A stretch of DNA of 60,176 nt from positions 1 through 60,176 of IMG/VR virus record IMGVR_UViG_3300030451_001785; one strand, written 5' to 3'. The notes beneath the pieces are model-generated. The model ran no database searches. It had not been told where the DNA came from and worked only from the letters and a program-made list of their open reading frames with translations. This DNA is from a virus. Taxonomy: Duplodnaviria > Caudoviricetes. The translations under genes and the position numbers were made by a program. Shown piece after piece: positions 44,363 to 60,176 of the stretch; position 1 is the stretch's first letter, and every line of letters starts with the position of its first letter.

Positions 44363-45952
44363 TTAATTCTTATCTTCGTAAGTTCGTGCCATTGTAACTA
44401 TAGCATTGGTTGATAGTAATGTAACTGCAACTGAAACGGCATTCTGTAATGCACACTTAGTTACCTTCAATGGGTCAATGATTCCCATTTCATACATACA
44501 TCCAAACTTATCATTCTTTACATCGTATCCACCGGAGAATACATCAGTGTCTTTAAAGACACCATTATCATATTCCTCTCCTGCGTTTTCCCATATTTGT
44601 AATAGTGGTGCTTGTAAAGCTTCAGCTAAAATATTTATGTGCTTTTGTTTTTTATCTTCTTCACTATAGTCAAGTGATTCTCTAAATAAAGCAAGACCAC
44701 CTCCCGGAAGTATACCTTCTTCTAAGGCAGAACGCACTGCACAGACTGCATCATCAACACGGTCATACAGTTCCTTCTGTTCCAAATCAGTATTACCTCC
44801 TACATAGATGACACCCACACCTCCTGTTAAAGAGGCAATCCTACTTAGTATAAAATCTTTATCTGCTTTTAGTTTTGCATTCTTTGCAGCTTCTTTTAAT
44901 TGTGCAACTCTTTCTTTTATTACATCTGCATTATTGTTATCCTCTTTAATGATAACAGTTGAGTCACGACCAACTATCACCTTGGAACAATGACCCAAAT
45001 CGTTTTCTGTTATCAAACTCAAATCATCACCGGTCTTCTCAGAAAAGTAAGTTGCACCAACACTCACTGCTATGTCCTGCATAAGTTCGTGTTGCTTATA
45101 CCCAAAGGAAGGTGGACCAATAGTGCAAAGCTTGAGATTGCTTTTCATCACGTTGGCAGCTAATGTGTTTACGACATTGGATGAGGTTGGTGCTATGATT
45201 AATAATTTTTTTCCACCATTTATAATTGGCTTCAATACATTTTCAATTTGTAATATATTTTCAATAGGAGCATCGCTAACTAAAATCTGACAGTCTTCTA
45301 AAATACACTCGTCTTTCTTTTGGTCATTAATAAATAGTGGAGATTCAAACCCTCTATCTATTTTCAAACCGTTAGTGGTTTCAAAATAAGTTTCAGAGTT
45401 TTGAGATTTATCTACTGCAACGATTCCGTCACGACCTACCTTACGGTAAACCTTTGCGATTATATCGCCTAGGTAAGAATCATTATTAGCAGATATAGTA
45501 GCAACATCTTTTAGAGTTTTACTATTTACTTTTCTTGCTTTCTTCTTTAGTCTATCAACTATGCAAGTTGTTTCGTGTACAAGGTCTCTAAGTACCTGTG
45601 TCTTATTCTCGTCTAAATCTCTACCTGCATTGACTAAAGCTTCTGTCAATACTATTGCAGTAGTTGTTCCGTCACCGGCTTGAGTAGCAGTTCTATCTGC
45701 TGCCTCTTTCATAATTCTTACTGCTAAGTTTTCTGTGGGGTCAATAAGTGAAACTGACTTTGCTACAGTAACTCCGTCTTTGGTTACTGTGATTCCGTGA
45801 GAGTGTTGTGGGGATTCTATTAATACTGTTTGTCCTGATGGTCCGAGTGTAGACTTAACTGCTTTGGAAATCTTTTCAATTCCTTTGTAAAGTTTATCTC
45901 TACCTTCTTCTGCAAACAATAGGTTCTTTGGGGTGTATCCTATTTCTGACAT
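44363..45952 (-). CDS. groEL: Chaperonin GroEL
   Basis: TLGP, VTKDGVTVAK, AGDGTTTA, GILPGGG, GIIDPLKV; TATATTTG element at 45975..45982. Confidence 0.97.
   Translation of the reverse strand: MSEIGYTPKNLLFAEEGRDKLYKGIEKISKAVKSTLGPSGQTVLIESPQHSHGITVTKDGVTVAKSVSLIDPTENLAVRIMKEAADRTATQAGDGTTTAIVLTEALVNAGRDLDENKTQVLRDLVHETTCIVDRLKKKARKVNSKTLKDVATISANNDSYLGDIIAKVYRKVGRDGIVAVDKSQNSETYFETTNGLKIDRGFESPLFINDQKKDECILEDCQILVSDAPIENILQIENVLKPIINGGKKLLIIAPTSSNVVNTLAANVMKSNLKLCTIGPPSFGYKQHELMQDIAVSVGATYFSEKTGDDLSLITENDLGHCSKVIVGRDSTVIIKEDNNNADVIKERVAQLKEAAKNAKLKADKDFILSRIASLTGGVGVIYVGGNTDLEQKELYDRVDDAVCAVRSALEEGILPGGGLALFRESLDYSEEDKKQKHINILAEALQAPLLQIWENAGEEYDNGVFKDTDVFSGGYDVKNDKFGCMYEMGIIDPLKVTKCALQNAVSVAVTLLSTNAIVTMARTYEDKN
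44547..44562. repeat. 16-bp palindrome copy inside groEL
   Basis: GTGTCTTTAAAGACAC, encodes VFKDT. Confidence 0.95.
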
Positions 45953-46218: not shown

Positions 46219-46290
46219 GCACCCATAGTTTAACGGATAAAACAAATCTCTTCTAAAGATTAAATCTAGGTTCGATTCCTAGTGGGTGTA
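46219..46290 (+). tRNA. tRNA-Arg(TCT)
   Basis: Acceptor GCACCCA/TGGGTGT, anticodon arm AATCT-CTTCTAA-AGATT, T arm CTAGG-TTCGATT-CCTAG; CCA not encoded. Confidence 0.9.
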
Positions 46291-46294
46291 CTAT

Positions 46295-46379
46295 GTCCTA
46301 TTGGTGAAATTGGTAAACACAACAGACTTAAAATCTGTCGAGCAGTATGCTCTTGTTGGTTCGAGTCCAACATAGGACA
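46295..46379 (+). tRNA. tRNA-Leu(TAA)
   Basis: Acceptor GTCCTAT/ATAGGAC, anticodon arm ACAGA-CTTAAAA-TCTGT, long variable arm, GTTGG-TTCGAGT-CCAAC. Confidence 0.9.
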
Positions 46380-46382
46380 CTA

Positions 46383-46456
46383 CCTCGTTTAACTCAGTTG
46401 GTTAGAGTAGCATCCTTATACGATGAAGGTCGTAGGTTCAAGTCCTACAACGAGGA
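46383..46456 (+). tRNA. tRNA-Ile(TAT)
   Basis: Acceptor CCTCGTT/AACGAGG, D arm ACTC/GAGT, anticodon arm CATC-CTTATAC-GATG, GTAGG-TTCAAGT-CCTAC. Confidence 0.85.
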
Positions 46457-47224: not shown

Positions 47225-47869
47225 ATGAGTACATTACTCCCAATCGAAACTGCGTTCCTCAATTCAACAGAGATTAAGAACGCTTTGAAACTTACTGAAG
47301 TAAAACGAGTTCAGAGAAGTATCAACAATGCTCACAAGAGCAAATTCAATCACACAACTAAACTAGCTACGCTAATCGGACAGGCAGTGCAATGGTTCGA
47401 TAGTGAAGAGGGTAGAGAGAAGTTCAGAGAAGAGGGTATTGAATGGTCAAAAGCCGAGTTCGGACAGAAGACTTTTGGATATCAGAAATCATTCTTCTAC
47501 AAGCTAGTTAAGGTTGCTAACCTTGACCCAAGAATACTTGATGCATTCAACACCAAGTGCGATGAAATTGGACAGGATGCAAACAGAAGTATTGCAGGGT
47601 TGCTTGAGTTCTCAAGAGATGTAAACCTTGATGCGATAGAGATATCAGAAGATGCAACTGAAGAAGAGGTTGCTATGGTACAACAAGAGGCAATTGACTC
47701 TACTCCTGTAGAACAGGAAAGAACAAATTACTTATTCGTTATGACCTACAAAAATCCTCAAGGAAACAACTTGTCAGTTCGAGTAGATGACCAAGGAAAT
47801 GTAAGTGGAAATAACCTAGAAGAAATTGCTAATGCAATTCAGTTCTTACAAAATTCAATTAATCAATAA
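47225..47869 (+). CDS. Hypothetical first early protein
   Basis: 214 aa preceded by an AAAATCAAAATT leader. Confidence 0.75.
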   Translation: MSTLLPIETAFLNSTEIKNALKLTEVKRVQRSINNAHKSKFNHTTKLATLIGQAVQWFDSEEGREKFREEGIEWSKAEFGQKTFGYQKSFFYKLVKVANLDPRILDAFNTKCDEIGQDANRSIAGLLEFSRDVNLDAIEISEDATEEEVAMVQQEAIDSTPVEQERTNYLFVMTYKNPQGNNLSVRVDDQGNVSGNNLEEIANAIQFLQNSINQ

Positions 47870-47872
47870 TCA

Positions 47873-47888
47873 GTGTCTTCAAAGACAC
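47873..47888. repeat. 16-bp palindrome copy, intergenic
   Basis: GTGTCTTCAAAGACAC. Confidence 0.95.
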
Positions 47889-47905
47889 ACAATACCACAG
47901 ATAAA

Positions 47906-48847
47906 ATGACAAATGAAATCACATACGAAATCTCTAACGAGTACGGAAGAAACCGAGTTCAGAGATACCACGGAACACCAAGTCCTAGAAACCTTTCTAA
48001 AGGTGCTAAATCTAGCGATATTGCTAACTTGAAGTCTGCATCCAAGAGAAACCTAATTGAGTTAGGTAATGGCGATGTAGATAGCAAGTTCACTATTGGA
48101 ATGGAAGTAGAGAAGAGTAGACTATCAAGAGGTGCAGTAAAAGAATACCCACTCTTCTGTGGGTTTGAAAGAGACTCCTCTTGTGGCTATGAAGCTATTA
48201 CTAATATCATACCTTTACTACCTAGTGGTAAGTGGCGAAACAAAGTGTTCAATATGATGTTTGAAGCTAGAAAAATCATTGAAGACCAATACTCTCCTAG
48301 TGACAGGAGATGTGGTGGTCACATTACTCTAGCAGTTCAAGGTATGACAGGTGCAGAGGTTATGTCTGCTATTCGTAAGAATTGTGGAATAGTTCACTCT
48401 CTGTTCTTCAAGAGGTTGAACAATGGGTACTGCCGAAACAATATGACTATGCTACCTAGCGACCAAGAGATGATGAATGGTGGTGGAAGATACCAAGTCT
48501 GTCTAGACAAGGGTAACACTATCGAGTTCAGAGTAGTGTCAAGGTTTCAATCTGTAAAGCAGATGATGAGAAGATACGAGTTATTCTATGAGTTACTTGA
48601 CTTTAGCATCAACAATCCAAATGGAAACCACAATACATTCCTCAAGAGAATCACTCCAATTGTCAAGTCTATGTACAATGGCGATATGGACAAAGTGAAT
48701 GAGAAGTTAGAGTTAGCAAAGCATTTCAGAACGATGATACTGAAGAACAAAGTGAATCGTAATGTAATCAACTATGTTGACCCAATGCGAAGACTTGACC
48801 CACAAAAATGGTACGACAGAGACCTTAACAGAAATGGGTATAGGTAA
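47906..48847 (+). CDS. Putative amidoligase (COOH-NH2 ligase type 2)
   Basis: TIGMEVE, ERDSS..YE, CGGHI and TIEFR motifs; ATG at 47906 preferred over the GTG inside the palindrome. Confidence 0.75.
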   Translation: MTNEITYEISNEYGRNRVQRYHGTPSPRNLSKGAKSSDIANLKSASKRNLIELGNGDVDSKFTIGMEVEKSRLSRGAVKEYPLFCGFERDSSCGYEAITNIIPLLPSGKWRNKVFNMMFEARKIIEDQYSPSDRRCGGHITLAVQGMTGAEVMSAIRKNCGIVHSLFFKRLNNGYCRNNMTMLPSDQEMMNGGGRYQVCLDKGNTIEFRVVSRFQSVKQMMRRYELFYELLDFSINNPNGNHNTFLKRITPIVKSMYNGDMDKVNEKLELAKHFRTMILKNKVNRNVINYVDPMRRLDPQKWYDRDLNRNGYR

Positions 48848-48855
48848 TCAATCAA

Positions 48856-48883
48856 AGGGTAGTGTCTTTAAAGACACTATCCT
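48856..48883 (+). repeat. Hairpin with palindrome core 48862..48877
   Basis: AGGGTAGTGTCT-TTAA-AGACACTATCCT with one G-U pair. Confidence 0.9.
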
Positions 48884-48933
48884 CTGTCTATCGGTGTGTG
48901 CCGATACTGATGTGTTCAAAAGAACGAAACAGA
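48883..48933 (+). ncRNA. Type III hammerhead ribozyme, variant core
   Basis: UCUGUC | UAUCGG-UGUGUG-CCGAUA CUGAUGU GUUC-AAAA-GAAC GAAA CAGA: three paired stems, GUC cleavage triplet, U instead of A at core position 9. Confidence 0.8.
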
Positions 48934-48957
48934 AACATTAATTTAATTTAAATCATT

Positions 48958-49209
48958 ATGAAAAACACAATTAAAAAAATCGGTTTGTATACAGAATCAA
49001 GTCTGTATGTATTAGTAACATTAGGAGTTTACTCCTGTATCATTAGGTTGTTTGCACATATTATTATGGAAGACCTACGAGAAGTTAATAGTATCAGTGG
49101 AATCCTAGCTATCGTTTTGGTAGTAGGTTTCTGTACATTCTGTGCTATTGCAACAGGCAGTCTTTTGGTTGCAGAAATCAAAGAGAGACACAAGAAGTTT
49201 AACCAATAA
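48958..49209 (+). CDS. Two-TM membrane protein
   Basis: Two hydrophobic helices with basic termini. Confidence 0.7.
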   Translation: MKNTIKKIGLYTESSLYVLVTLGVYSCIIRLFAHIIMEDLREVNSISGILAIVLVVGFCTFCAIATGSLLVAEIKERHKKFNQ

Positions 49210-49220
49210 AATTAAATCAA

Positions 49221-49721
49221 ATGGAAAAGTTTATATGGACAGATGAATCTGTCAAAGCATTCGTACAAGTGTATTCAAGTAACTTTAATTCAAAGCTACT
49301 GAAAGATAGTGCAGTCACTTACAAAAACTATGCAGGGAAAAAGATAGATGAAAAGGTAGAGCAGTTTAAAAGAGACTACATTAAACCAAGAGGAATGTAT
49401 GTAGTCCTCTTGCAGTTCGATACTCATAAGATAACTTATGGAACGAACAGAGGGCAGTGGGTAGTTCGTAAAGAGTTCAATGACCTAAAGCATTGCAACA
49501 ACTTTATTGACTATATCTGTCGCAAGAAAGGATACTCACTTGATGAGATGTGGTACGAATCAGGATACCCATTTAACGAGGGCGACAAGTATTATACCAT
49601 CGAAGATAAACAGATAGTGGAATCTTGGTGGGATGATGAGTCAGAGGCATTGTTTGACAAAGACAAGTTATACTTTGCGACAATGGAGGATGCAGAGTAT
49701 TACAGAGAGAGTATTGTTTAA
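49221..49721 (+). CDS. Hypothetical early protein
   Basis: 166 aa with an AAATCAA leader. Confidence 0.7.
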   Translation: MEKFIWTDESVKAFVQVYSSNFNSKLLKDSAVTYKNYAGKKIDEKVEQFKRDYIKPRGMYVVLLQFDTHKITYGTNRGQWVVRKEFNDLKHCNNFIDYICRKKGYSLDEMWYESGYPFNEGDKYYTIEDKQIVESWWDDESEALFDKDKLYFATMEDAEYYRESIV

Positions 49722-49745
49722 TCTGTGGTAGATTAAATGTGAATG

Positions 49746-49779
49746 GAGGGTAGTGTCTTCAAAGACACTGCTCTCTTTT
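49746..49779 (+). terminator. Terminator-like hairpin with palindrome core 49753..49768
   Basis: GAGGGTAGTGTCT-TCAA-AGACACTGCTCTC-TTTT with two G-U pairs. Confidence 0.65.
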
Positions 49780-49802
49780 CTTACCACACAAAATTTAAAA
49801 CT

Positions 49803-50117
49803 ATGACTAAAAGAGAACAAATAATTAAAGAGTTAACAAGAAGAATGCAGATAGCTAAAGACACTCAAGCTATAGGCAGAGAAAAATATCTAGCTACACT
49901 TATAGATGGTGTGAAGAATGAGTTCAAACCTGCTTATCTAGAATCAGACAAAGGGAAGAAGTATAGTACCTGCTTTGACAATATGGAGACCTGTGGTTGT
50001 GAGACAAGTCAACTTGAATGGTGGAATTACTTTGGCGATTATGTCGAGCATCATAGACCAACTTGTTACAACAACGCATTGGAATACGCAGACGAACAAG
50101 AACAAAAAAATAAATAA
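49803..50117 (+). CDS. Hypothetical early protein
   Basis: Start MTKREQ preferred; the listed start at 49743 would read through the hairpin. Confidence 0.65.
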   Translation: MTKREQIIKELTRRMQIAKDTQAIGREKYLATLIDGVKNEFKPAYLESDKGKKYSTCFDNMETCGCETSQLEWWNYFGDYVEHHRPTCYNNALEYADEQEQKNK

Positions 50118-50120
50118 GAT

Positions 50121-50282
50121 ATGGAAGAGCAAAGATATTATCAGTTATACTACAAAGGGAAACCTTTGTTTATGCAATTAGGTTATTCAGTCTACCACGC
50201 AATAGACCAAGCTTATAGTATGCTTATAGGCAACGGTCACAAGGTTGACCGTAAAGACTTGACTGCAAAAAAGTTACGGTAG
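50121..50282 (+). CDS. 53-aa hypothetical protein (not in the ORF track)
   Basis: Hand translation MEEQRYYQLYYKGKPLFMQLGYSVYHAIDQAY...; fills the gap exactly. Confidence 0.55.
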   Translation: MEEQRYYQLYYKGKPLFMQLGYSVYHAIDQAYSMLIGNGHKVDRKDLTAKKLR

Positions 50283-50284
50283 GA

Positions 50285-50316
50285 TTTGGATATGTCTAAA
50301 TTTTGTCGTATATTTG
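50285..50316 (+). promoter_or_regulatory. Bacteroidetes consensus promoter
   Basis: TTTG-N20-TATATTTG matches the -33/-7 consensus. Confidence 0.8.
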
Positions 50317-50343
50317 TTTAAATTAATTATTAATCAGAGTTCT

Positions 50344-50359
50344 GTGTCTTCAAAGACAC
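50344..50359. repeat. 16-bp palindrome copy in 5' leader
   Basis: GTGTCTTCAAAGACAC between the promoter and the ATG at 50381. Confidence 0.95.
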
Positions 50360-50380
50360 TGCTCACAAATCAAATCAATT

Positions 50381-51460
50381 ATGTGCGTTATTATTATAAA
50401 GCAAAAAGACAATGTAATGTCGAAAGAGGTAGCCAAAACCTCATCAAGAATTAATCCTCACGGATTAGGAATAATTTGGTTAGATACTTTTGAAGTCGAG
50501 TATCACAAATCAAAAGACTATCACAAGCTACTAACAAAGAGACCATTCATTGCTCACTTTCGTTATGCTACCAAAGGTAAAATCAACAGAGCCAACACGC
50601 ATCCATTTGTGTGTGGTAACAACAAGGATGAATACCTTATGCACAATGGAACAATACAAGGTATGGGCAACAAAGAATGTTGCGATAGCAAGATGTTAGC
50701 CAACAAGCTTGGAACAATCAATCGTATGCATTGGAAAAAAGAGTTAGAACAATACGACTCAAGGTTTGTGTCGGTCAATGTTCGCACTCGTTCATTCCAA
50801 ATCTACAACAGGAATCTCTATACTTACAGGGATGGCATTTGGTATTCAAAAGCCAATGTATTACAGGACAATCTTATCGCAGTGTATGGTACACTAAAGA
50901 AAGGTTATGGTAATTACTATGCGTATCTAACAAACGCAAAGCACCTTGGTCGGGGAACAACTAAAGACAAATATCCTTTGGTTGTTTCGGGTCTACCATA
51001 TTTGGTGGATGAAAAAGGCAGAGGTCACAATGTGGTTGTTGATGTGTTCAAAGTATCTGATGCACAACTACAAAGGGTTGACCAACTTGAAGGTCATCCT
51101 CGTTGGTACAAGCGAAAGCAAATAGATATCAAACTAAAGAATCGTACCTTGAAGTGTTGGATATATTTCAATCCACAAGTAATCACAAGCACGACACAAC
51201 TGCACAGGTCTTTTGAAAGAACTGCAAGACCAACGCAACAGGTGTTTACATTCCAAGATGTTGAGCCAACTTATGATACCACAGAGTTTCACGAGGCAAT
51301 AGATATTGGTTGGGATGATAACGACTTTCCAACAGACCAAACACCAACTTGTATTGACTGCTTTAATGACTTGGAACACGATGCGTTCCACAACTACTAC
51401 TGCTCATCCTGTGGTGGTTGGTTTAAGGAAGATGAAGTGTTGAGGTTTAACGAAGAATAA
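50381..51460 (+). CDS. Class II glutamine amidotransferase / gamma-glutamylcyclotransferase / Zn-ribbon fusion
   Basis: N-terminal MC, NPHGLG, HFRYAT, THPF, MHNG, DS; then AVYGTLKKG and DQLEG; C-terminal CxxC...CxxC. Confidence 0.85.
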   Translation: MCVIIIKQKDNVMSKEVAKTSSRINPHGLGIIWLDTFEVEYHKSKDYHKLLTKRPFIAHFRYATKGKINRANTHPFVCGNNKDEYLMHNGTIQGMGNKECCDSKMLANKLGTINRMHWKKELEQYDSRFVSVNVRTRSFQIYNRNLYTYRDGIWYSKANVLQDNLIAVYGTLKKGYGNYYAYLTNAKHLGRGTTKDKYPLVVSGLPYLVDEKGRGHNVVVDVFKVSDAQLQRVDQLEGHPRWYKRKQIDIKLKNRTLKCWIYFNPQVITSTTQLHRSFERTARPTQQVFTFQDVEPTYDTTEFHEAIDIGWDDNDFPTDQTPTCIDCFNDLEHDAFHNYYCSSCGGWFKEDEVLRFNEE

Positions 51461-51543
51461 TATTAATCAGAGGGGTGGTGTCTGTAACGAGAGGATTCAC
51501 ACACTACAAACAAGCAGACCCACTCCTCATAAAATCAAATCAA

Positions 51544-51828
51544 ATGAAAGTAAAAATTCAAAACCGTAGTGTCTATCACAAATTCGCAGAAGTAGAAATA
51601 GAGATAGACGAAAATAAATTAAAAGAGTACACCGATTCAGGTGCAACTATTCAGGATTATCTGTTTGACCATTCAAATTTGTATGATGATAAAATAGACA
51701 AGGCAATTAGCGAGGCAAACTTTGAGTATGGTAGTGGGATAGATGACTACCGAGGTATGGTAGATGAACTAGACTCATCTGAATGGAGGTTTGAATGCGA
51801 GGACTTAAAAATGGGTGGACACCTATAG
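51544..51828 (+). CDS. Hypothetical early protein
   Basis: Start MKVKIQ after AAAATCAAATCAA preferred over 51475. Confidence 0.65.
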   Translation: MKVKIQNRSVYHKFAEVEIEIDENKLKEYTDSGATIQDYLFDHSNLYDDKIDKAISEANFEYGSGIDDYRGMVDELDSSEWRFECEDLKMGGHL

Positions 51829-51842
51829 TATTAATCAGAGGG

Positions 51843-51858
51843 GTGTCTTCAAAGACAC
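51843..51858. repeat. 16-bp palindrome copy in leader hairpin
   Basis: GAGGG-GTGTCTTCAAAGACAC-TCCTC. Confidence 0.95.
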
Positions 51859-51879
51859 TCCTCATAAATCAAAATAAAA

Positions 51880-52131
51880 ATGGCAGACTTAAAAGAAATA
51901 TCAAGCGAAGACTTGAGACAAGAGTTAGAACTGAGAGGTTACTACACTCAAAACTTGTGGCACACAGATGATGTGATGCAGAACTATGATTGTAAATCAG
52001 AAGATGCACAAGAGTTACTAGACAGAGTAATGACAGGCGAATGGATAACCGAGCAAATATTTGTAGCGATAGATGAAGTAGCTAGTGGAATGATGGAACG
52101 CAGATTTGCACCTAAAAATATAAACCAATGA
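51880..52131 (+). CDS. Hypothetical acidic early protein
   Basis: 83-aa ORF. Confidence 0.65.
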   Translation: MADLKEISSEDLRQELELRGYYTQNLWHTDDVMQNYDCKSEDAQELLDRVMTGEWITEQIFVAIDEVASGMMERRFAPKNINQ

Positions 52132-52442
52132 TACATATAACTGACGACCATTTTGTTTGGCTCGATGTGACAGACAGAATGAAATATGGAATGAAAATGA
52201 TTGAAGAGATATGGCTCGGTCACGAGTTGTATGAAGTTACAGAAGAGGGAAGAGATAGTTTAATAGAAGATGTAGACTTAATCAAACCTGCTATCGCAAG
52301 AGGTAGCAGGATTTGTATTGAGGTAGGACACCTACCAAAACACTACCATCCAAAACAAACTTGGGATGGAACAGACAAGAAACTTATTGATGGATATTGG
52401 TATGTAAAAATGTCTGATTTAAATTTGGTGGGGTCTAAATAA
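52128..52442 (+). CDS. Hypothetical early protein
   Basis: 104 aa, ATGA-coupled. Confidence 0.65.
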   Translation: MIHITDDHFVWLDVTDRMKYGMKMIEEIWLGHELYEVTEEGRDSLIEDVDLIKPAIARGSRICIEVGHLPKHYHPKQTWDGTDKKLIDGYWYVKMSDLNLVGSK

Positions 52443-52455
52443 TTTCGTACTTTAG
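52424..52455 (+). promoter_or_regulatory. Bacteroidetes-type promoter, variant -7
   Basis: TTTG-N20-TACTTTAG. Confidence 0.5.
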
Positions 52456-52478
52456 TATAAATTAAAATCAATTTTATT

Positions 52479-52865
52479 ATGAAAAAAAATATGAGACATC
52501 TGCAAAATGAACACCTCATCAAAATGAAACTAGAGGGTGCAGATAAAAAGAAAATTCAAAAGGTTCAACAAGCAATTGATAGAGATACTTATGGTGTAAA
52601 ACAATACCGTACAACACGGGATAAGTATACCGTTAATGAGTTCATCAATCGTTGGGCGAACCCACCATTTATTCCACGCAGAAGTGTGGCAGTTTACTTA
52701 TACCTTGGACACAACTATATCTTTGAAATAGAGACAGGTAAGAAAAAAGATGATGTAAGTTTAGAGTTCCAATGGACAGACCACGATGGTAAGGTGTGGA
52801 AGTACAAAACTTTGCAGGGTGCAGAGAAACGAATGTGTGATTACATATTCGATGTTAGTAATTAA
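52479..52865 (+). CDS. Hypothetical protein
   Basis: 128-aa ORF. Confidence 0.65.
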   Translation: MKKNMRHLQNEHLIKMKLEGADKKKIQKVQQAIDRDTYGVKQYRTTRDKYTVNEFINRWANPPFIPRRSVAVYLYLGHNYIFEIETGKKKDDVSLEFQWTDHDGKVWKYKTLQGAEKRMCDYIFDVSN

Positions 52866-52876
52866 AATCAAATCAA

Positions 52877-53125
52877 ATGACTTTTAAATTATTTCAAGAC
52901 TCTGGTATGATTTCTAAAACAGAAGTGCTATCAGACACAAGCAGACTCCATCGAGACACCACTGATGTTATTATCTATTTAGGTAGATACTACATTGAGA
53001 TGTTGAAGAATGGAAAGTTTTTGTACCGACCAAAAGGTACAGGTCAGGGCAAGAGGTCTAAGTTCTTGCATATTGTAGAACAATTTATGTACAATCAAAT
53101 CAATGAAGACGGAAGATTTAATTAA
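52877..53125 (+). CDS. Hypothetical protein
   Basis: 82 aa with an AAAATCAAATCAA leader. Confidence 0.65.
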   Translation: MTFKLFQDSGMISKTEVLSDTSRLHRDTTDVIIYLGRYYIEMLKNGKFLYRPKGTGQGKRSKFLHIVEQFMYNQINEDGRFN

Positions 53126-53393
53126 AGAAGTAGGCAGGGAAGTTGTAATGCTATTGCTAGAAAAGAACAAAGCTTATGGCGACACGGCTAATCAACCACC
53201 TAAAATTTTCAGTAAGCTTTCTGCAAAGGAAGGAATACTTGCAAGGATAGATGACAAGTTAAGCAGGATAAAAACCGTAGGCATCAATGATGAAACGGAG
53301 GATACTTTGCTAGACTTAATCGGATATCTAATTCTGTATAGAGTTCAGTGCAAAAAAGAAGAAGTGTCTTCAAAGACACAACAAAAAAGTTAG
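53103..53393 (+). CDS. DUF1599/Nmad1-like all-alpha nucleotide-modification-associated protein
   Basis: KNKAYGD...RIDDKLSR...EDTLLDLIGY. Confidence 0.75.
   Translation: MKTEDLIKEVGREVVMLLLEKNKAYGDTANQPPKIFSKLSAKEGILARIDDKLSRIKTVGINDETEDTLLDLIGYLILYRVQCKKEEVSSKTQQKS
53364..53379. repeat. 16-bp palindrome copy in 3' end of CDS
   Basis: GTGTCTTCAAAGACAC, encodes VSSKT. Confidence 0.95.
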
Positions 53394-53399
53394 ACAAAA

Positions 53400-53431
53400 T
53401 TTGGTCAAGTAATAAACTTTGACTATATTTA
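53400..53431 (+). promoter_or_regulatory. Bacteroidetes-type promoter, variant -7
   Basis: TTTG-N20-TATATTTA. Confidence 0.5.
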
Positions 53432-53466
53432 CAGACTATTTTTTATTAATCAAAATCAAATCAATT

Positions 53467-53670
53467 ATGGGTAAAATGAAAGAGGTGTTCCAAGAGGAAC
53501 AAGAGTCTCGTTCAGTTCAAGATAAGTTCTTGGATGAAGAATGGGAGATGCGAGTACGACAAGTACAAGAGCAACAAAGACAATTGTTAAACCAAATCTT
53601 TGAATCGTGGGGAGAAGTCTTCGGAGTCAAAGATGTTAAATCAAAATCAAATGAAGACAACCATTTTTAA
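53467..53670 (+). CDS. Hypothetical protein
   Basis: Start MGKMKE after the AATCAAAATCAAATCAATT leader. Confidence 0.6.
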   Translation: MGKMKEVFQEEQESRSVQDKFLDEEWEMRVRQVQEQQRQLLNQIFESWGEVFGVKDVKSKSNEDNHF

Positions 53671-53947
53671 TCAGTATGTAGACAAGGTTTGTTTTCTATT
53701 TAATGTAGACCGAGAGGTGTTATTTAGTAAAACAAAACGAAGGGATGTAGTAGATGCTAGGCAACTACTATATTATCTGTGTTCTCAAAGACCAATGAGG
53801 TTAGTTTACATTCAAGAGTATATGTCAGACAACGGTTACGAAATCAATCACAGTTCAATCCATCACGGAATATCTGTGGTCAAAAAGAAAATGGAAACCG
53901 ATAAGGATTATATATCTGAAGTGAATCTTATAGTAAATGAACGATAG
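53651..53947 (+). CDS. DnaA domain IV-like HTH protein
   Basis: LFSKTKRRDVVDARQLLYYLC...NHSSIHHG; start MKTTIF. Confidence 0.8.
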   Translation: MKTTIFNQYVDKVCFLFNVDREVLFSKTKRRDVVDARQLLYYLCSQRPMRLVYIQEYMSDNGYEINHSSIHHGISVVKKKMETDKDYISEVNLIVNER

Positions 53948-54380
53948 ATTATTAGAAGTATTTGAAGAGGCAACTAATGATGGTTATGCATTGAAGATGG
54001 ATGGTCACGGTTACCAATCACGAATGGTGTATGGTGTTAAGATTATCAAAGACAATGAAACTAATAGGGTTGACTTTCTAAATACAATGTTAGGTGGAGA
54101 CCACTACAAAAAACTTACATCAGAACAACTACAAAATTTTATAGATTATGGTTGGAGATATGGAGTTTATGTCTTATCTTTGTCTAACTATCGTTCAAAG
54201 CTTGACATCATAGAGAAACGAATACATAAGTTTATCAATGATAAAAAGTCAGAGAAGCAGATAAGAATATTAAAAGAGAGTAGGGAAAGAATCCTTGCTC
54301 GTTATAGTGAAATCAATTTTAAATTAAATCAATTAGATTATGGCAACAAAATCAACAACGAAGAAGCAGACAACATTTGA
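53937..54380 (+). CDS. Hypothetical protein
   Basis: 147-aa ORF. Confidence 0.65.
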   Translation: MNDRLLEVFEEATNDGYALKMDGHGYQSRMVYGVKIIKDNETNRVDFLNTMLGGDHYKKLTSEQLQNFIDYGWRYGVYVLSLSNYRSKLDIIEKRIHKFINDKKSEKQIRILKESRERILARYSEINFKLNQLDYGNKINNEEADNI

Positions 54381-54993
54381 GAAGCTATCTTCAATCAATG
54401 TAAATAAATTCATTGAGAAAAAGAACGGACTGAGTTATTTGTCTTGGGCGTATGCTTGGGCAGAAACAAAAAAGAATTGTCCTGATGCACAATACAAAAT
54501 CCTTGACACAACTTATGATGATGCGACAGGGTTTATGTGTCACACTGAAGTTACTATCGCAGGAGAAACATTAGCAATGTGGTTGCCTGTAATGGATAGT
54601 AAGAATCAGTCTATGAAAAAGCACAAGTATACTTACTCAACTAGGTATGGCGAGAAAGAAGTACAAGGTGCAACAACTACCGACATCAACAAGACTATTA
54701 TGAGATGCTTGACCAAGAACTTGGCGATGTTCGGATTAGGAATTTATATCTATGCAGGAGAGGATATGCCAATGGAAGAGACAAACGAAAAGGTTGTGTC
54801 TTCAAAGACACCACCTAAAAAAATGAGTGGTCATCCTCAACTTGAAATGGGTACAGAGAATTGGAAGAATGTAAGCAAGTTTGTTATCGAACATTCCAAA
54901 GACCTGAATCAAAAGCAATTGTTTGACAAGATTATGCTGAAGTATTCGCTGACTGCAACTACTAAAGCTGAACTTAAAAAGCTAATGAAATGA
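54340..54993 (+). CDS. Sak/Rad52-like single-strand annealing protein (DUF1071-like)
   Basis: EKKNGLSYLSWAYAW...WLPVMD...INKTIMRCLTKNLAMFGLGIYIYAGED. Confidence 0.9.
   Translation: MATKSTTKKQTTFEKLSSINVNKFIEKKNGLSYLSWAYAWAETKKNCPDAQYKILDTTYDDATGFMCHTEVTIAGETLAMWLPVMDSKNQSMKKHKYTYSTRYGEKEVQGATTTDINKTIMRCLTKNLAMFGLGIYIYAGEDMPMEETNEKVVSSKTPPKKMSGHPQLEMGTENWKNVSKFVIEHSKDLNQKQLFDKIMLKYSLTATTKAELKKLMK
54796..54811. repeat. 16-bp palindrome copy inside annealing-protein gene
   Basis: GTGTCTTCAAAGACAC, encodes VSSKT in a linker. Confidence 0.95.
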
Positions 54994-58986: not shown

Positions 58987-60176
58987 AAAGAACGGCAGGG
59001 TACACAGACAAAATGATGTACGAACAGTGTAAACTTTTCTATGATATAATTTTTAGAACTGAAAAGGTAAAGGTTGGAAGAGGCAAGAACGCAAAGTTTG
59101 TAGACCAAAGAGTATACGGTGCAGAAGAAGAAGTAGAACGCAGAGCAATTGAGAGTCTTGAATATTATAAAAAGAAAATGGAGAACCCTAGTAAAATAAA
59201 ATACAGAGAATACCAAAAGAAAATTATAGTACAGGGTGCAGAAAGTATTTTGAAAAATGATTTTCTATACCTTACAATGGAGGTGCGAACCGGTAAAACT
59301 TTAACGAGTTTAGGTATCGCAAGACTGCTGAACCGTAAGAAAGTTTTATTCATCACAAAGAAAAAAGCTATTAGCAGCATAGAAGCTGATTACGAAATGC
59401 TCAATCCTGATTATGATTTAGTAGTAATAAACTACGAATCATTACATAAAATATCAGACAGAGACTTTGACTTTATAATATTGGATGAAGCACACAGTAT
59501 GGGTGCATTTCCAAAACCAAGTAAGAGAGCCAAGCAAGTAAAAGATTTATTGAGAACCTGCGATGCTCAAGTAATTTTGTTATCAGGAACACCAACACCT
59601 GAATCATACAGTCAGATGTATCATCAAGTGTATGGAATAAAAAACAATCCGTTCAAAGAATATATTAACTTCTACAAGTTTGCTAAAAAATATGTGAAAG
59701 TAAAACAACAAAAGATAAATGGTTTGTATATAAATAATTATCACGATGGACTTCAGTCTATCATAGATGATATGAAACCACATATAATATCTTACTCACA
59801 AAAAGAAGCAGGGTTTAAAGTAGACACAAGGGAGCACACGCTTGAGGTTGAAATGAAACCTATCACCTATCAACTCACCAAGAAACTTCAAAAGGATTTA
59901 GTGGTTGAGGGTAAAGAAGAAATAATTTTGGGTGACACTCCTGTAAAACTTATGATGAAGCTTCATCAATTATACTCAGGTACAATAAAGTTTGAGTCAG
60001 GAAACTCTACAGTTATTGACCACAGTAAAGCACAGTACATCTACGATAATTTTTGTACACAAAAAATTGGAATCTTTTATAAGTTCAAAGAAGAACTCAA
60101 AGCACTTAAAGAAATATATGGAGACCAATTATGTACAGACCTTAGTGTCTTTGAAGACACTGATAAAAGTATAGCA
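58938..60176 (+). CDS. SNF2-like superfamily 2 helicase, N-terminal part (missing from the ORF track; ends at 390 across the join)
   Basis: Hand translation gives YREYQ, MEVRTGKT, INYESLHK, ILDEAH and LLSGTP; same frame as 1..390; about 495 aa in total. Confidence 0.85.
   Translation, partial: MHSDKELHQGKTDYVIERTAGYTDKMMYEQCKLFYDIIFRTEKVKVGRGKNAKFVDQRVYGAEEEVERRAIESLEYYKKKMENPSKIKYREYQKKIIVQGAESILKNDFLYLTMEVRTGKTLTSLGIARLLNRKKVLFITKKKAISSIEADYEMLNPDYDLVVINYESLHKISDRDFDFIILDEAHSMGAFPKPSKRAKQVKDLLRTCDAQVILLSGTPTPESYSQMYHQVYGIKNNPFKEYINFYKFAKKYVKVKQQKINGLYINNYHDGLQSIIDDMKPHIISYSQKEAGFKVDTREHTLEVEMKPITYQLTKKLQKDLVVEGKEEIILGDTPVKLMMKLHQLYSGTIKFESGNSTVIDHSKAQYIYDNFCTQKIGIFYKFKEELKALKEIYGDQLCTDLSVFEDTDKSIA
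60036..60176. repeat. Terminal overlap with 1..141
   Basis: 139/141 identical to the window start. Confidence 0.95.

Follow-up and report, generated by a model that had tools for sequence, protein, structure and literature searches.

A predicted type III hammerhead ribozyme with uracil at core position 9, and its relatives in the gene spacers of marine phages

The window, by which we mean the whole stretch of 60,176 nucleotides analysed here (positions 1 to 60,176 of the IMG/VR virus record IMGVR_UViG_3300030451_001785, a member of the Caudoviricetes), encodes portal, terminase and virion proteins in a minus-strand block, and a primase-like protein and a GATase/GGCT protein in a plus-strand block which also carries the RNA element described below. 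The original prediction placed this element in an early operon; the label is plausible because the plus-strand block codes for the primase-like and GATase/GGCT proteins, the timing being read from gene content alone. The closest terminase is that of MW202828.1 (75%), followed by those of Flavobacterium (68 records), Cellulophaga (15), Tenacibaculum and Maribacter phages, all below 60%. A Cpn60/GroEL-type chaperonin (44363-45952, minus strand; Pfam E 3.1e-52) and three adjacent tRNA genes (46219-46456, plus strand) immediately precede the plus-strand operon. Positions 73-141 recur as the final 69 nt of the record (60108-60176), so that the record overlaps itself near its ends, though IMG/VR lists it as linear without end repeats. 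The element lies in the spacer between two plus-strand open reading frames, and the features of the locus are as follows:

47873-48847, plus strand: upstream ORF, 324 aa as listed (ORF list; 43 homologous loci)
48856-48883, plus strand: extended palindromic hairpin (minimum-energy fold), with the core GTGTCTTTAAAGACAC at 48862-48877
48883-48887, plus strand: 5' strand of stem III, UCUGU, last base U16.1 (Rfam alignment, covariation)
48888, plus strand: C17 of the GUC triplet, predicted cut at 48888/48889 (alignment to RF00008)
48889-48906, plus strand: stem-loop I, UAUCGG (48889-48894), UGUGUG, CCGAUA (48901-48906) (family covariation)
48907-48913, plus strand: core C3 U4 G5 A6 U7 G8 U9, with U9 at 48913 in place of the conserved A9
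48914-48925, plus strand: stem-loop II, GUUC, AAAA, GAAC, with the G10.1-C11.1 pair (sequence, family alignment)
48926-48928, plus strand: core G12 A13 A14, invariant in the family alignment
48929-48933, plus strand: 3' strand of stem III, ACAGA, first base A15.1 (Rfam alignment, covariation)
48934-48957, plus strand: A+U-rich leader from the hammerhead to the next start codon (23 nt after the 53-nt aligned element)
48958-49209, plus strand: downstream ORF, 83 aa, with two hydrophobic stretches (ORF list, hydrophobicity)

The upstream ORF probably starts at the in-frame ATG at 47906, because the listed GTG start falls within another copy of the palindrome. Its product had been labelled an amidoligase, a label we do not retain: no Pfam or PHROGs family matched the 324-aa protein, and its language-model neighbour cluster, in which 12% of the members carry Amidoligase_2, is a weak lead only. 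No Pfam or PHROGs family matched the downstream 83-aa protein either; its two hydrophobic stretches agree with the membrane protein that had been proposed there, and the product is probably a small membrane protein.

The motif at 48883-48933, a type III hammerhead with U at core position 9, is present on the plus strand exactly as the original prediction described it (UCUGUC / UAUCGG-UGUGUG-CCGAUA / CUGAUGU / GUUC-AAAA-GAAC / GAAA / CAGA). Three helices surround the core, with the open ends at stem III and loops on stems I and II, which is the type III topology, and every position of the consensus core (C3 U4 G5 A6 N7 G8 A9, G12 A13 A14, the A15.1-U16.1 pair and H17) is retained except A9, which is U at 48913. 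The Rfam model Hammerhead_3 (RF00008) aligns with the motif end to end over model positions 1-54 with a score of 34.7 bits (E 3.6e-6 for the 221 nt searched). This is below the RF00008 gathering cut-off of 48.5 bits, for which reason a default Rfam scan at gathering cut-offs returned three tRNAs only and did not list the hammerhead; the Rfam search that had been suggested as a check thus gave a full-length match that falls short of the family threshold. The cut-off rejects the healthy members of the phage family as well, since a natural copy with A9 (locus L207) reaches 41.7 bits and the top relatives 47.5 bits. By alignment, the window element is a hammerhead by descent, one substitution away from the canonical copy in L207, and the type III assignment holds on topology and, through the RF00008 alignment and the covarying relatives, on descent. 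When 2 kb were compared with GenBank phages by blastn, a single weak match to coding sequence was obtained, the hammerhead itself being unmatched.

Relatives of the locus were recovered through the upstream ORF, giving 43 IMG/VR loci with 35-84% identity. RF00008 matches at E<=1 occur in 33 of these 43 records, none of them above the cut-off. In 30 of the 43, a hammerhead detected with our own descriptor starts 25-54 nt past the stop codon of the upstream ORF on the same strand, and two further loci, L015 and L017, have by eye a hammerhead with a 2-bp stem II in the same slot; the structural conservation in related phages on which the original prediction had been staked is therefore present, including covarying stems. 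Across all fetched loci, the descriptor yielded 187 distinct candidates, of which 183 were kept, so that the family comprises at least 183 distinct type III hammerheads. The four left out are 63-74 nt long, compared with 51-54 nt for the family form; two have off-consensus cores and two are without the family loops. In the closest terminase relative, MW202828.1, RF00008 found nothing at E<=1. Flavobacterium phage vB_FspP_elemoA_7-9A carries a match to the model with 36.3 bits, in the region of MT497017.1 19083-19139 on the minus strand, which ends 14 nt before a gene, and that gene heads the leftward gene block. The carriers of the family are marine podophages akin to Flavobacteriaceae phages.

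The 145 of the 183 copies that are exactly 53 nt long were aligned (alignment A1). Paired cells make up 92.5% of this alignment, compared with 66.4% in shuffles and 34-49% with slid partners, a percentage which is partly built in because the descriptor requires pairing; the many pair types are not built in. Both sides vary in 14 of the 16 pairs, and the covariation score is 0.731 as against 0.211 in shuffles, with none of 500 shuffles reaching the observed value. All six pairs of stem I covary, with 100% of their cells paired. The first base of loop I is invariably U and the last base of loop II invariably A, in agreement with the tertiary A-U Hoogsteen pair known from natural hammerheads (PMC2553840). 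A family model (R1) built from A1, with the window and many relatives in its training set, found 60 copies in 36 of the 43 records, zero to three per record. In the window it found a single copy with 70.7 bits, a score to be read in the light of the window's place in the training set, and the next best match there scored 14.7 bits. On this comparative evidence, the window element is a member of a large type III hammerhead family located between genes of marine phages.

The base at the cleavage site of the A1 copies tracks the 10.1/11.1 pair. With G-C at 10.1/11.1 the base is C in 90, A in 22 and U in one copy; with U.U (27 of the 145 copies) it is A in 24, C in one and U in two; and with A.A it is U in all five. 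Shared descent or structural coupling may account for this pattern. The three subtypes can share one genome and one site. The A10.1-A11.1/GUU form is not described in the paper sections covered.

The hairpin adjoining the hammerhead, also noted in the original prediction, is found in the minimum-energy fold at 48856-48883 (-32.3 kcal/mol, z -5.71, a stability that none of 200 shuffles attained), and its last base, U48883, is also the only one that it shares with stem III. Its core belongs to the palindrome GTGTCTT[T/C][A/G]AAGACAC, of which the window holds 15 copies where 0.64 would be expected. Each copy is 16 nt long, and they start at the following positions of the window:

110, 8033, 24661, 31772, 44547, 46995, 47873 and 48862: palindrome copies
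49753, 50344, 51843, 53364, 54796, 56116 and 60145: further palindrome copies

Additional G/C-rich pairing often occurs outside the core, and in the plus-strand operon most of the palindromes stand 17-40 nt ahead of start codons. The two central bases are CA at 47873-54796 and TG at six other sites, implying that the element has a direction. It may act as an RNA hairpin, a protein site or a promoter. The proposed link between hammerhead and palindrome is borne out in the family: a GTGTC..GACAC palindrome lies no more than 45 nt upstream in 90 of the 187 hammerhead candidates, and in 80 of those 90 it ends 5-12 nt before H17. The same spacing is seen in the window, where the palindrome ends at 48877, C17 is at 48888 and the next ATG at 48958.

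The placement of the family between genes was measured on the 163 hammerheads with 400 nt on either side. An ORF of at least 50 codons ends no more than 150 nt upstream of 155 of the 163, and one starts no more than 150 nt downstream on the same strand in 148, at a median distance of 23 nt (interquartile range 20-28). The next ORF starts no more than 60 nt downstream of 139 of the 163 hammerheads, compared with 211 of 915 random positions. Between co-directional genes the family thus carries a module made up of a GTGTC..GACAC hairpin, the hammerhead and a leader of about 23 nt. Cleavage of the polycistronic transcript by the ribozyme after H17 would leave an upstream message that terminates in the hairpin and bears a 2',3'-cyclic phosphate, and a downstream message that starts at a 5'-OH and runs through the ribozyme body into the short leader rich in A+U. 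Gene-flanking phage hammerheads do cleave in vitro (PMC3088659). The family context, comprising the palindrome partner, the spacing to the ORFs and the sharing of the slot with other elements, supports the role in transcript processing that had been put forward for the window element, the cutting itself being what we infer from it.

The same slot in the 11 remaining relatives contains other elements and no hammerhead. In L016, L018, L025, L026 and L041 it is occupied by an acceptor-like stem stacked upon a T-arm whose loop is of the GUUCGAGUC type, the element of L026 having a tRNA-like fold with an extra arm, and in L042 and L043 by a terminator-like hairpin followed by a T-run. L010 (3955-4010) and L013 (3985-4040) have in common a 9-bp covarying hairpin with the loop AGAAAC, followed by AUUUGGUGGUAGAAAC; no Rfam family matched this motif, which has just these two instances in all loci. 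The content of the slots of L033 and L034 could not be read. A DUF805b RNA (RF02914; 39.0 bits, gathering score 35.6) occurs at L033:2202-2236, about 0.8 kb upstream of the ORF homologue. The acceptor/T-arm elements belong to a set of half-tRNA mimics of 41-44 nt in operon spacers, which consist of a 6-bp acceptor-like stem, a linker and a 6-bp T-stem, and are found at the following places among others:

L016:3925-3968, half-tRNA mimic
L018:2928-2969, half-tRNA mimic
L026:2926-2966, half-tRNA mimic
L027:2929-2970, half-tRNA mimic
L179:3142-3182, half-tRNA mimic

The UGG within the linker and the T-loop (UUCGAKU) of these mimics are invariant, and in 13 aligned copies, selected with a descriptor that requires pairing, all 12 pairs are formed and both sides vary in 11 of them. 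The mimics are called neither by ARAGORN nor by the Rfam tRNA model at E<=0.5. A range of devices that cut or end RNA, such as those predicted here, is to be expected of a slot that serves for processing. In run X8, a strain approximately 98% identical over window positions 47800-49800 has a different hammerhead in the same place, from which it follows that the cassette is exchangeable between near-identical genomes. From the listed changes, the X8 hammerhead reads as the GUA/U10.1-U11.1 subtype with A9. The stretch 48869-48925 accounts for 12 of its 39 substitutions and for both indels, as though a swap had replaced the cassette from the palindrome up to the conserved leader.

Two rival readings question the motif itself or the role of its family. 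The motif could be a chance hammerhead look-alike, as its score below the Rfam gathering cut-off might suggest, and weak RF00008 matches at E<=10 are also found in 7 of 14 control genomes. The RF00008 E-value of the window motif for the whole 60-kb record is nevertheless 2.3e-7, and the score of 18 which it attains with our descriptor (CUGANGN, GAA and three stems of at least 3 bp) was reached in none of 300 dinucleotide shuffles of the window, the top shuffle scoring 15 and only three of the 300 scoring 14 or more. With syntenic and covarying relatives in addition, this reading is refuted and can be set aside almost with certainty. The family could also be mainly a folded RNA or DNA cassette, acting as a translation leader or a recombination module, with cleavage secondary. 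The tight spacing to the start codon would suit such a cassette, as would the swap in the X8 strain, but all catalytic-core positions are kept over the 145 copies, which a mere fold would not need, and elsewhere the slot is filled by putative substrates of the RNase P/Z type or by hairpins resembling terminators; we consider a mainly structural role improbable. Transcript processing is retained as the proposed role of the family.

Position 9 is A in 144 of the 145 copies of A1, U9 being a singleton, and A in all 134 matches listed for a pattern that leaves this position free. A scan of IMG/VR that required a base other than A at position 9 yielded one further hammerhead, L194, which also has U9; in its lineage U9 is found in one of six contigs, the five closest contigs (approximately 94% nucleotide identity) having A9. 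Among metagenome contigs with the hammerhead type of the window, U9 occurs in one of 16 (scaffold L201, with flanks identical to the window) and A9 in the other 15. The 54-nt hammerhead of L207 is identical to that of the window apart from A9 and represents its natural A9 twin; the difference between their Rfam scores shows that U9 costs 7.0 bits. Over the aligned element the window matches L207 at 52 of 53 and L002 at 51 of 53 positions, compared with only 77-79% identity in the flanks of about 2 kb. Nine non-A9 matches from a scan for the U.U/A.A subtypes were rejected as chance, hammerhead stems being absent. From this distribution we read U9 as confined to lineage tips and as a recent, derived mutation.

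U9 is probably a real allele, because it recurs in two other assemblies. A 5,907-nt contig of the Logan assembly of run X3 (depth 8.5) keeps T at 48913 and differs from the window over 2,001 nt at one position, 48869 (T>C); scaffold L201 has U9 as well. The X6 contigs end at 48868/48973, and the RNA run X19 covers 48502-48662 only, so that neither bears on the site. A sequencing or assembly error in a phage which truly has A9 might be imagined for a single base of a metagenome assembly, the more so as X3 and L201 may derive from the sample of the window itself and hence speak more against a slip of the assembler than for persistence in independent samples. X3 was, however, assembled separately and has T at 48913 though it differs at 48869, and L201 carries U9 too, which makes an error very improbable.

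What U9 would do to catalysis can be judged from the roles of A9. In the natural fold, G12 and A9 form a sheared pair with three hydrogen bonds, including one from the G12 amino group to A9-N7, G12 acts as the general base, and N1/N6 of A9 lie close to the phosphate that is cleaved (PMC2553840). The L-platform scheme makes A9 the L-anchor, whose pro-Rp oxygen holds the metal together with N7 of G10.1 (PMC6961537). U9 would be without the N7 and N6 groups that A9 uses for pairing with G12; it would keep the phosphate and lose the base contacts of A9. It may instead form a wobble pair with G12, lengthening stem II and occupying the Watson-Crick face of G12, and the pair probability of U9:G12 computed with ViennaRNA is 0.59, compared with 0 for A9. 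No measured rate for an A9U change was found in the passages of the hammerhead literature searched, which included PMC9901934, PMC11620745, PMC12192606, PMC6155905 and PMC6257768; the single-mutant table of PMC9901934 may contain one. A clear loss of activity from U9 is on these grounds rather probable, and useful residual activity is doubtful.

A copy that still works, perhaps slowly or conditionally, as a tuned core variant processing the transcript, has several observations in its favour. U9 originated twice independently, and both non-A9 copies have U, with C9 and G9 never found; the rest of the element is intact, given its match to L207 against diverged flanks; and the U and A of the two loops, which suit the stabilising tertiary pair of Hoogsteen type (PMC2553840), are conserved in the family. 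A conditional role has been proposed for slow phage core variants (PMC3088659), and uracil is the natural, preferred and best L-anchor in the hairpin ribozyme (PMC6961537). Set against these are the two sole occurrences of U9 as single tips among A9 relatives, the absence of any accompanying change in the window copy, the loss of the A9 groups that pair with G12 together with the predicted competing wobble, and the possibility that in a cassette swappable by recombination the identity to L207 is recent and not maintained. We regard a functional U9 copy as rather unlikely. Since U9 is a singleton and a single change from a natural A9 twin, a weakened allele is likelier than a working 'U9 type'. 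The reading which we prefer, and hold to be somewhat probable, is that the window copy is a real and recent allele whose self-cleavage is reduced or lost, the defect being tolerated because single hammerheads are, as we propose, dispensable in this clade. Taken by itself, the window copy is an ordinary phage hammerhead, probably with a defect.

A broader interpretation, which we advance tentatively, is that the spacers hold interchangeable RNA 'punctuation' cassettes, namely three hammerhead subtypes, half-tRNA mimics (RNase P/Z) and terminator-like hairpins, which would be swapped by recombination beside the palindrome and would all serve to close a message with a hairpin and to open the following one, with the U9 copy as a hypomorph or slow cutter among them. 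If this is true, a punctuation system with a natural U9 hypomorph would be a direct test of the role of phage hammerheads. PMC6155905 describes the function of hammerheads in phages and bacteria as still unsettled. The family offers a handle on this role through its many covarying copies, the fixed distance to the start codon and a hairpin partner in about half of the copies, and the sharing of the slot with half-tRNA mimics and terminator-like hairpins points to transcript cutting and 3' end formation. The pair formed by the window (U9) and L207 (A9), which differ by one core base, offers a natural comparison for testing whether a tertiary-stabilised hammerhead requires A9, and end mapping in infected cells is feasible since the cultured phage vB_FspP_elemoA_7-9A has a hammerhead match.

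In its architecture, the window element resembles the sTRSV-type hammerheads of RF00008, in which the stem II tetraloop contacts the closed loop of stem I. It has the same open stem III, GUC triplet, CUGANG..GAAA core and G10.1-C11.1 pair, the same stem II of 4 bp capped by a tetraloop whose last base is A, and a stem I of 6 bp whose loop begins with U, an arrangement that suits the conserved A-U Hoogsteen tertiary pair (PMC2553840). It differs in having U for A at position 9, and the whole phage family differs in scoring below the cut-off. Hammerheads of phages and prophages, several per operon between small genes, have been proposed to process long transcripts (Perreault et al. 2011, PMC3088659), and the family of the window is likewise intergenic in phage operons, here of marine flavobacterial-type podophages. 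The hammerheads of that study are mostly type II with pseudoknots, whereas those described here are type III with a fixed palindrome and about 23 nt to the start codon. A halovirus hammerhead is located 13 nt before the start codon of an early transcript, with a mapped 5' end no more than 3 nt from the site (PMC3088659). Natural core variants include the A6C of phage Bcep176, U10.1-U11.1 and U15.1-A16.1 (PMC3088659); like A6C, the window has a single deviation from the core consensus in a phage intergenic hammerhead, and the U10.1-U11.1 variant is found in the family of the window too. A change of A9 is not among the core variants in section 8 of that paper, the supplement of which (Figures S6, S7) may list more. 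Phage intergenic hammerheads, their cleavage in vitro, slow core variants and U10.1-U11.1 are already known (PMC3088659). The fixed palindrome partner, the 23-nt spacing and the sharing of the slot with half-tRNA mimics did not occur in the literature searched. Full-text searches brought up no paper whose title or abstract reports hammerheads and half-tRNA mimics sharing a slot in phages, which does not prove its absence.

Transcripts can be punctuated by tRNAs, and acceptor/T-arm minihelices are model substrates of RNase P. The relatives similarly hold acceptor and T-arm mimics in the same spacers, which are predicted substrates; unlike in those relatives, the site in the window holds no half-tRNA mimic. 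In phage T7, RNase III hairpins lie between early genes, and cuts in the intergenic regions leave upstream messages that end in a hairpin. The outcome proposed here is similar to that in T7, with the difference that the cut in the window would be independent of protein, and the hairpin would not itself be the cut site.
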